Shown here in pieces: positions 14,455-20,000 of a stretch of DNA of 20,000 nt. The notes below the pieces were generated by a model. That model had not been told where the DNA came from. It worked only from the letters and a program-made list of their open reading frames with translations, and made no database searches. The position numbers were made by a program, and so were the translations under genes. The number at the start of each line of letters is the position of its first letter. Within the stretch, counting starts at the first letter, position 1. The stretch lies in the NCBI GenBank assembly GCA_964501035.1, contig CAZCRK010000002.1:55893-75892 (forward strand). Direction: 5' to 3'.

Positions 14455-14602
14455 CTAACGTACACTAATTAAATATCAAATATTTTAGTTTTATTCCAAA
14501 CTATTGGCGTAAAATTAAATCCGACCAAAATAGTCCTTTTTATTTAATATAAATAAAATGTAACTTTGTTTGTTCATTACTTTATAATAAATGGAGGGGA
14601 AA

Positions 14603-17311: not shown

Positions 17312-17402
17312 TGGCGGAGAGAGGGAGATTTGAACTCCCGGTAGGCTTTTGACCTACACACGCTTTCCAAGCGTGCACCTTAAACCACTCGGACACCTCT
17401 CC
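17312..17402 (-). tRNA. tRNA-Ser(GGA)
   Basis: Reverse complement GGAGAGGTGTCCGAGTGGTTTAAGGTG-CACGC-TTGGAAA-GCGTG, long variable arm GTAGGTCAAAAGCCTAC, then GGGAGTTCAAATCTCCC-TCTCTCCGCCA with encoded CCA. Confidence 0.98.
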
Positions 17403-17645: not shown

Positions 17646-19385
17646 ATGAAACACACAATCAAACATATCTCAACTTATCTTATTTTTATAATTACAGGAT
17701 TATTTGTTTTTACATCTTGTGATGACCCAGTAGAACCCGATACAACTGCACCATTAGTTGTCATCACATCCCCAGTTGAAGATGCAACATTGTCAAGTGC
17801 AACGACTATTCGGGTAGATGCTACAGATGATACAGGTGTAGAAAAAGTAGAATTTTTAATTGATGGGCAAACGGTGGCGACTGATACTGAAGAACCGTGG
17901 GAACACCTATGGCAAGTGAGTTATTACGCTGATGGTGAAACTCATTCTATTTTAGCCAAAGCCTCTGACGAAGCAGAGAATACAGGGCAAAGTGATTTAG
18001 TGCATGTCTTTGTATCAGAAAATGCACAGGAAACGCCAACACTACAAATACCCTTGAATTACACTGTTGAAAGAAACACTAATATAATTGACTTTATTTG
18101 GTCAAGTATTGCGGGTGCAGAGGAGTACATTGTAATAGTTTCCTCCAGTTATAATTTCACAGACACGGAGTATAGTATAACAACCTCAGACACAACTGTT
18201 ACTACTGATGCTTTAGTAGAAGGAAATCATTATTGGAAGGTTCGTGCAAAGAATAGTGTTGGTAACTATGGTGAGTGGTCAAGTTATTATACATTTGAAA
18301 TAACAGGTCCTGAAGCACCTACATTAATAACACCTGAGTATGGAGAACAGATTGCAGATGCAGAAAACGCTGATTTGGTTTGGTCAACATCAGAGTTTGC
18401 TGAAACTTATGATGTAATAGTTTCCTCCAGTTATAATTTCACAGACACGGAGTATAGTATAACAACCTCAGACACAACTGTTACTACTGATGCTTTAGTA
18501 GAAGGAAATCATTATTGGAAGGTTCGTGCAAAGAACAGTGTTGGTAATTATGGTGAATGGTCAAGTTATTATAGTTTTAGAATCGGTGAATCAGCATTTA
18601 CTGGTCAGATGGTATCCCTTTCCGGTGGCACTTTTGAGATGGGCGATATTTGGGGAGCAGGATATAGTAATGAACAACCGACTCATACCGTTACCTTGAG
18701 CAGTTTTGAGATGAGTGCTACAGAAATCACCAATCAGCAGTATGCAGACTATTTAACAGAAGCATTAGCAGATGGCAGTATATCAGCCACAAGTGGCAGT
18801 GTAACTGGTACTTGGGAAGGCAATACTTATGAATTTTTAGATTTAGATGATAGTGATTGTCAAATAACCTATTCAAACGGTCAATTTACTGTAGATGCAG
18901 GTAAAGAGAATTATCCAGTCATTGAAGTAAGTTGGTATGGATCAACAGGTTTTGCAGAGTATTATGGATGCAGACTACCTACCGAAGCAGAATGGGAATA
19001 TGCATCAAGAGGTATATCAGCAGGAGAAGACCATAAATGGTCAGGCACAAGTACAGAGAGCGAACTTACAGATTATGCGTGGTACTATGAAAATTGGGAT
19101 GGAAACTATCACGGAAGAGAAGTAGGTACAAAACTTCCGAATGGCAATGGATTATACGATATGAGTGGTAATGTATGGGAATGGGTATCCGATTGGTATG
19201 ATGATAGTTACTATTCTAATAGCCCCCAGAACGACCCACAAGGACCTTCAAGCGGTTCTTTTCGTGTTATACGCGGTGGCCGTTATTATAATGATTCCAA
19301 CTATTTGCGTTGTTCAAATCGTAACGGCAACGATCCGAGCTACACGGGCTACGGCATCGGTTTCCGTATTTCCAGGACAAATTNN
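17646..19385 (+). CDS. DGR target lipoprotein: Ig-like domain + 2 FN3-like repeats + FGE-sulfatase (CLec-fold) domain with C-terminal VR (about 579 aa)
   Basis: AGGAG ribosome-binding site at 17632 and lipobox FTSC. Ig-like DTTAPLVVITSP; FGE motifs FEMG, YPVIEVSW, RLPTEAEWEYA, GLYDMSGNVWEW, RVIRGG, GFR. The stop T(AG) falls in the N gap, inferred from copy 2. The ORF-track extension to 19445 is an artefact. Confidence 0.92.
18131..18573 (+). repeat. intragenic direct repeat, 161 bp x2 (18131-18291 and 18413-18573)
   Basis: Offset 282 nt (94 codons). Only 3 mismatches, all synonymous (AAT/AAC, AAC/AAT, GAG/GAA). Confidence 0.95.
19237..19383 (+). repeat. DGR variable repeat, copy 1
   Basis: Encodes QGPSSGSFRVIRGGRYYNDSNYLRCSNRNGNDPSYTGYGIGFRISRTN. 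Differs from copy 2 almost only at codon positions 1-2 of NNY codons. Confidence 0.9.
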
Positions 19386-19393
19386 NNNNNNNN
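19384..19393. other. assembly/scaffold gap (10 N)
   Basis: Run of ten N between the two VR copies. Confidence 0.99.
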
Positions 19394-19545
19394 CACAAGG
19401 ACCTTCAAGCGGTTCGTTTCGTGTTTTACGCGGTGGCGATTATGATGATGTTTCCGGCAGTTTGCGTTGTTCAAGTCGTAGCAGCGTCGGGCTTCCGAGC
19501 AGCGCGTTCAGCAGCATCGGTTTCCGTATTTCCAGGACAAATTAG
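19394..19545 (+). repeat. DGR variable repeat, copy 2 (ends in TAG)
   Basis: Encodes QGPSSGSFRVLRGGDYDDVSGSLRCSSRSSVGLPSSAFSSIGFRISRTN*. 26 substitutions plus a 3-nt insertion relative to copy 1. Confidence 0.9.
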
Positions 19546-19571: not shown

Positions 19572-19620
19572 CCAGCCTGCTCCACGCTGTTTCGTGGCTG
19601 GCAGGCGCTTTTTTCTTTTG
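19572..19620 (+). other. GC-rich hairpin downstream of the VR, followed by a T tract (DGR target-recognition hairpin and/or terminator)
   Basis: GCCTGC (19575-19580) pairs with GCAGGC (19601-19606), enclosing CCACG-CTGTTT-CGTGG. A T-rich tail follows. Confidence 0.65.
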
Positions 19621-19656: not shown

Positions 19657-20000
19657 ATGATTGAGAAAGAAATAGAAATATTACCGAAAGTTTATGATTT
19701 AATTTTGTGGTATTCACCTAAAATAAGCCAATATCCAAAAAAGTATAAATACACAATTGGTGAGAGAATTACGAACACGCAGTTGGCGATATTAGAGCGA
19801 ATCATTGAAGCAAAATACACAAGTGGTAGTAAAAAGAAACATTTTCTTCGTCAAGCAAATCTAAACCTTGAAAAACTTAGGTTTTTAATAAGATTAAGTA
19901 AAGATTTGCAGTGTATATCCATTAAAGAGTATGAATTTGTATCTAAAAACATCAATGAGATTGGTCAAATGGTAGGTGGCTGGGAGAAATGGACTTTAGT
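19657..20000 (+). CDS. avd: DGR accessory variability determinant Avd (truncated by the window edge; absent from the ORF track)
   Basis: Manual translation: MIEKEIEILPKVYDLILWYSPKISQYPKKYKYTIGERITNTQLAILERIIEAKYTSGSKKKHFLRQANLNLEKLRFLIRLSKDLQCISIKEYEFVSKNINEIGQMVGGWEKWTL... It shows the bAvd-like four-helix-bundle pattern (YDL..W, PK..Y.IG.RI, LEKLRFLIRL, EIG.M.GGW). Confidence 0.92.
   Translation, partial: MIEKEIEILPKVYDLILWYSPKISQYPKKYKYTIGERITNTQLAILERIIEAKYTSGSKKKHFLRQANLNLEKLRFLIRLSKDLQCISIKEYEFVSKNINEIGQMVGGWEKWTL

Follow-up and report, generated by a model that had tools for sequence, protein, structure and literature searches.

The window, that is, the whole stretch of 20,000 nt that was analysed, corresponds to positions 55893-75892 of contig C2 of the draft genome (G000:C2:55893-75892), and its right-hand end is also the end of that contig. 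As one can read from the translations, its content is cellular rather than viral and includes alanyl-tRNA synthetase-, glycine dehydrogenase-, and amidophosphoribosyltransferase-like proteins, among others. Between positions 14591 and 16817 there are small genes for exported proteins (dockerin-domain, PSCyt1 cytochrome-c-domain, weak cytochrome b561-like membrane, and YceI-like), which may form a small redox or binding cluster and are seemingly unrelated to the subject of this analysis. A tRNA-Ser gene (anticodon GGA), at 17312-17402 on the minus strand, separates a MORN-repeat gene from the target gene of a diversity-generating retroelement (DGR). The target gene is interrupted near its end by a run of N, a stretch of it is found on both sides of that run, and it is followed by the accessory gene avd. 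The features are as follows:

17646-19383, plus strand: DGR target gene as far as the N run, an ORF lacking only its last base and the stop codon, which are found after copy 2
19237-19383, plus strand: copy 1 of the duplicated stretch, 147 nt, with CACAAGG at its 5' start
19384-19393, no strand: scaffold gap of exactly 10 N, joining two contigs with overlapping ends
19394-19543, plus strand: copy 2, 150 nt, also with CACAAGG at its 5' start; its last T is the first base of the stop codon
19543-19545, plus strand: TAG stop codon of the target gene
19575-19616, plus strand: G+C-rich hairpin with a T run, about 30 nt past the stop codon (stem in the centroid structure; z -3.1; matched in folding by 2 of 200 shuffled sequences)
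19657-20000, plus strand: avd (accessory variability determinant), cut by the contig end after 114 codons

The product of the target gene is, as predicted from its translation, a surface lipoprotein with an FGE-sulfatase/C-type-lectin domain. Its N-terminus has the form of a signal peptide whose end is lipobox-like and has a Cys, and Pfam recognizes a Big_7 immunoglobulin domain (2e-16) and an FGE-sulfatase domain (1.5e-54, residues 321-575 of 579), the latter having a C-type-lectin fold. Two Ig/FN3-like modules lie between these domains. At the nucleotide level they form a 171-nt direct repeat inside the gene (18131-18301 and 18413-18583, 96% identity), which is an assembly hazard too, and the related protein P0121 (635 aa) has one more such module, so that the module number varies among relatives. 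The FGE-sulfatase domain reaches the end of the protein, and both copies of the duplicated stretch correspond to its last 45 codons or so. When ORFs are called on the window as it stands, one obtains a 599-aa frame that runs across the N run. The hairpin past the stop codon is terminator-like; in a second genome of the same family (G003), where the sequence was judged by eye, no comparable hairpin is evident at the matching place.

The two copies share 81% identity (E 2.5e-35 in a search of the own genome), a likeness far beyond chance. The earlier note had remarked that both end alike and meet at exactly 10 N, and the same final 28 nt are indeed found in both. Its counts of 26 substitutions in 18 codons (17 non-synonymous), with T or C at the third position in both copies for 15 of the changed codons, could be reproduced when a one-codon gap was allowed. 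As an ungapped codon comparison of the copies gives 53 mismatches, the count of 26 must have assumed a gap, which was left unstated; the note is silent on the point that copy 2 is one codon (3 nt) longer than copy 1. The length difference is located where 8 nt of copy 2 (19486-19493) stand against 5 nt of copy 1 (19329-19333). Placing the gap at the nucleotide level leaves 25 columns in which the copies disagree. First codon positions account for 13 of them, second positions for 11, and third positions for 1; an A is present in copy 1 at 14 of the 25, in copy 2 at 6, and in neither at 5.

When the whole draft genome was searched with copy 1 as the query, a third, AAC-rich copy was found in the last 77 nt of another contig (G000:C24, minus strand). 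This terminal stretch is, on the strength of the alignment, the 3' part of the template repeat (TR) of the same genome, and comparisons with the TR in its own genome are limited to these assembled 77 nt. The TR part on C24 matches copy 1 in length. The variable region (VR) can then be delimited in both copies:

19251-19374, plus strand: VR allele 1, of TR length; the homology to the TR of G003 begins at AGCGGTTC
19408-19534, plus strand: VR allele 2, one codon longer; its 3 extra nt fall within 19486-19493, in the part for which the AAC run of the TR is the template

Over the 69 comparable columns, 25 of which have an A in the TR, copy 1 has 10 differences from the TR, and copy 2 has 14 in addition to its 3-nt insertion. 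Each of these differences (10/10 and 14/14) falls at a TR adenine, a placement with a hypergeometric P of 1e-5 for copy 1 and 3e-8 for copy 2, and no substitution in these columns lies elsewhere. For the 5' half, where the own TR is not assembled, the TR of the same-family genome G003 served as the standard: all 11 mismatches between copy 1 and copy 2 are at an A of that TR (20 A in 55 columns; P 1.4e-6). It had been proposed from the window alone that neither copy is the TR and that both were made from one unseen template, and the repeat on C24, together with the adenines of the G003 TR, bears out both proposals. Sequencing error was considered as the origin of allele 2 and rejected, given that its substitutions relative to the known part of the TR are all at TR adenines.

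The VR and TR are identical as far as ATTTCCA and diverge after it, a pattern as of an IMH/IMH* pair; a G+C-rich IMH motif could not be recognized at either 3' end. The two alleles also share some bases at places where the TR of G003 has A. An example near the beginning of the VR is a TTT (Phe; 19260-19262 and 19417-19419) in both, against AAT in the G003 TR, and the corresponding residue varies in related proteins (Y, G, T, N, and K, with F in P0127). Either the own TR would be without adenines at this site, or the 5' end of the VR may not have been replaced when the alleles separated, as a matter of shared history.

The product of avd matches the Pfam family bAvd at 2e-20 (73.7 bits, against a cut-off of 40 bits) and is 74% identical to that of G003. 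The cassette of G003 lies on one contig and consists of an FGE-sulfatase target, avd, a reverse transcriptase (RT; RVT_1, 1.2e-29), and the TR. The present draft genome, which is 95.7% complete, has neither an RVT_1 match nor a match to the RT of this relative. The contig with the target gene ends inside avd, and going by the layout of G003, the missing stretch between C2 and C24 is expected to measure about 1.2 kb. No contig of the draft is shorter than 1510 nt; a piece of about 1.2 kb would be under a length floor of about 1.5 kb and would thus have been dropped, which would explain why the RT is absent from the draft.

An Rfam RT-14 RNA (RF02921) starts at the TR's 3' end, where it takes in the final 7 nt of the repeat, both on G000:C24 and in G003:

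G000:C24:20472-20608 (= L003:1371-1507), minus strand: RT-14 RNA, from Rfam
L018:5270-5401, minus strand: RT-14 RNA in G003, from Rfam

The scores of 48.5 bits (G000:C24) and 51.2 bits (G003) place a structured RNA beside the TR at barely above the gathering score of 48.1. About 65 nt past the TR are conserved between the two genomes, and this RNA is probably the element used by the RT-Avd complex. Synteny past the TR was sought with tblastx, comparing C24 and the G003 locus, and no hits were obtained; the adjacency of C2 and C24 is therefore supported by the DGR parts alone. In G003 itself, the VR is 7 nt shorter than its own TR (at about 792-915 versus 2503-2633 of L018, which is G003:C4 on the reverse strand). 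The deficit shifts the frame so that the target ORF overruns the expected stop, and it is due either to a genuine frameshifting indel or to VR variants that were assembled into a chimera.

Four public runs from four studies (X1-X4) were compared with the locus in the form of pre-assembled contigs, a comparison in which uncovered parts do not count as evidence. Runs X1 and X2 have nearly the same contigs; they look like a single data set that was filed twice and are probably not independent. In X1 there is an exact 151-nt contig over 19394-19544 (allele 2; depth 2.7), which stops at both ends of the copy; no contig for allele 2 was seen in X2. Neither of these two runs has allele 1 as an exact contig or an exact same-strain contig over the non-variable stretch 19158-19236, and a same-strain contig bridging 19157 to 19394 is found in none of the four. 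Because the non-variable stretch 19158-19236 is also without an exact contig, thin coverage (about 5x) may explain the break as much as heterogeneity does.

A 270-nt contig in X2 matches 19251-19335 with 11 differences and is unlike the window upstream, precisely where homology to the TR should start; it may be the missing 5' part of the TR. The depth of 2.5-3.0 seen over copy 1 in X1 and X2 might be taken for half coverage of allele 1. This was rejected: the value of 3.01 in X2 is the share of the 270-nt contig, which is more likely the 5' part of the TR than allele 1, and the depth over copy 1 in X1 is near-identical to that in X2. A scan of metagenome contigs for a 19-mer common to the VR and TR returned six loci, all of them chance matches, among which the only likeness was one 30-nt stretch around the 19-mer in L020. 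Among short protein fragments bearing other VRs, there were none from the same species, the best match being 55% identical.

How the duplicated stretch should be read depends on whether one or two loci are involved. We consider it probable (about 85%) that one hypervariable gene end has been written twice, as two unmerged natural alleles of an ordinary DGR, and the gaps of the assembly provide the first line of evidence. There are 24 gaps of 100 N and 4 of 10 N, and 7 of the 28 have duplicates abutting both sides: five exact 55-mers, one of 179 nt, and the present case, in which the duplicate occupies 154-300 of the 300-nt left flank and 1-150 of the right flank. Abutting duplicates of this kind we take to be the mark of a SPAdes-type scaffolder with k = 55, and unmerged overlaps are thus routine in this assembly. 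The exact 55-nt overlaps, which are trivially closable, are at the 100-N gaps C6:20073, C8:4033, C10:25165, C28:9001, and C52:2185; the gaps C54:2360, C33:5502, and C2:38931 fall within repetitive coding sequence.

An overlap of two VR alleles left by the assembler was also the reading preferred in the earlier note, which had named a second target gene hidden in the gap as the alternative. The copies would then be truly separate, either as a second or partial target that has its own VR just upstream of avd and a body in the gap, or as a tandem VR, and this we regard as very improbable. Multi-target DGRs are known (PMC5758913), the downstream side of copy 1 and the upstream side of copy 2 are both unassembled, and a difference of one codon would be unremarkable for paralogues. 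However, the duplication is bounded exactly by the gap, as at the other overlap-type gaps of this assembly, and the relatives have one VR each. In G003 a single VR stands directly 5' of avd. In a related contig from X3, with differences at 116 of 668 letters, the places that correspond to 19200 and 19666 are 314 nt apart; in the window they are 465 nt apart, or 305 nt if there is one VR. A single VR at the end is seen in 10/10 of the related proteins aligned. The search of the own genome with copy 1 revealed no further VR-like copy in the draft, and a VR lacking its own lectin-fold body would presumably not fold. The contigs with the gene body and with avd have equal depths in X1 (4.8 and 5.1), which gives no hint of a collapsed second gene, weak as such a sign is at this depth.

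The reading as two alleles of one locus leads to the following account. The host would be an uncultured, low-G+C marine bacterium, probably of the lineage Marinimicrobia to judge from the names on related proteins, with one chromosomal DGR locus in which the target, avd, and presumably the RT are followed by the TR with its RT-14-type RNA element. The VR would comprise the last 45 or so codons, on the ligand-binding face of the C-type-lectin/FGE-sulfatase fold. If the established DGR mechanism operates here, the TR RNA would serve as the template for a cDNA in which the bases opposite adenines are random, and this cDNA would replace the VR. The sampled population would have carried at least two VR alleles, from which a short-read assembler would have built two contigs, one in which the gene body runs on into allele 1 and one in which allele 2 runs on into avd. 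As their overlapping ends are only 83% alike, they would not have been merged, and the scaffolder would have inserted 10 N. Slippage of the RT in the AAC run would be the simplest account of the extra codon in allele 2.

That diversification is active we infer from two alleles only, and one may ask whether this single locus merely records old differences between fixed strains or pooled samples, with an element that is perhaps inactive now. The small number of alleles, a draft genome without an RT match, and an assembly that may pool data would all suit this view, but we consider it unlikely. In X1 and X2 the contigs over the flanks agree with the window in every letter (0 others), against 25 differing sites in the 124-nt VR, and the same concentration is seen among relatives: the near-identical orthologues P0121, P0123, P0124, and P0126, which come from other samples, agree at 115/115 positions just before the VR in 6/6 pairs and at 15-22/35 positions within it, so that all have different VRs. 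As to the RT, the missing piece is expected to be shorter than the shortest contig, and no damage is seen in the assembled parts of avd, the TR, and the RT-14 RNA. Polymorphism of this kind is common in metagenomes, with SNVs at 70.1% of VR loci (PMC8144416).

The additional codon in allele 2 deserves separate consideration. Its 3 nt lie inside the stretch templated by the TR run AAC AAC AAC AAT, and wherever the gap is placed, changes at adenines do not suffice to turn AAC or AAT into the inserted codon, which calls for either one change at a base other than A or some bases added without a template. The extra residue is absent from all 10 related proteins in the alignment. Lengths of the TR and VR differ in 25 of 372 DGRs, mostly by multiples of 3 and in 74% of cases adjoining AAC, and Wu et al. 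2018 ascribe such differences to template slippage (PMC5758913), a model that is also cited in the discussion of a 2026 study of a reconstituted DGR (PMC12875486). The retroelement could itself have newly inserted the codon, in frame, when its RT slipped in the AAC run of the TR, an explanation that we hold tentatively and at a little under even odds. If true, the DGR alters the length of the binding loop besides its residues, and a natural population has been caught with both length forms.

The value of these observations is mainly practical. As an assembly artefact, the duplicated stretch would lead gene-calling programs to cut the target gene short or to read it wrongly; at the same time, it flags a DGR that is otherwise hidden in the draft, with the RT missing and the TR on another contig. 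Among the 12 avd loci listed from a search of 61 genomes (L006-L017), 11 have a contig end at most 1.5 kb from avd, and only G039:C80 has full flanks. DGR cassettes seem, as a rule, to break such short-read draft genomes. With 11 of the 12 listed avd loci near contig ends, the DGRs of marine drafts are likely to be under-counted by tools that need the RT, TR, and VR on one contig, and the same caveat is made by Roux et al. 2021 (PMC8144416). The locus is also a further example, from an abundant uncultured marine lineage, of a surface lipoprotein whose lectin face is hypervariable.

In the PDB, the target protein has its best matches among the formylglycine-generating enzymes (5e-41), which belong to the same Pfam family. 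When the target is aligned with 2q17 and 6muj, the C-x4-C cysteines of the Streptomyces enzyme, which we take to be its catalytic pair, fall in insertions that are missing from the variable stretch of the target. As both cysteines are missing, the target domain is likely a binding scaffold and not an enzyme. Among the closest matches there is also TvpA (2y3c; 4e-29), a DGR-diversified lipoprotein of Treponema denticola, the alignment with which is gapless through the VR, from RGG to GFR. Pfam and the TvpA match agree in placing the VR at the C-terminus of a C-type-lectin (FGE-sulfatase) target protein; the fold class and the C-terminal position of the variable residues would be those of TvpA, from which the target differs in its added N-terminal Ig/FN3-like modules.

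At the level of the cassette, the closest counterpart is architecture B2 (avd-RT-TR) with a C-type-lectin-class VR, as described by Wu et al. 2018 (PMC5758913). Adenine-only differences between the TR and VR are shared with these DGRs, as are avd, an AAC-rich TR, a VR that forms the C-terminal end of an FGE-sulfatase/CLec domain, and an in-frame indel adjoining an AAC run. The B2 order of target, avd, RT, and TR is read in G003, and by analogy with G003 it would also apply to this genome, where the RT is unassembled. Variants are concentrated in the VR here as they are in the metagenome VR loci of Roux et al. 2021, who also report poor read recruitment over VRs and fragmented assemblies around DGRs (PMC8144416). 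The heterogeneity differs from theirs in that it takes the form of a duplicate across a scaffold gap and not of called SNVs. The locus is an ordinary DGR that belongs to a known kind, with no departure from established DGR biology.
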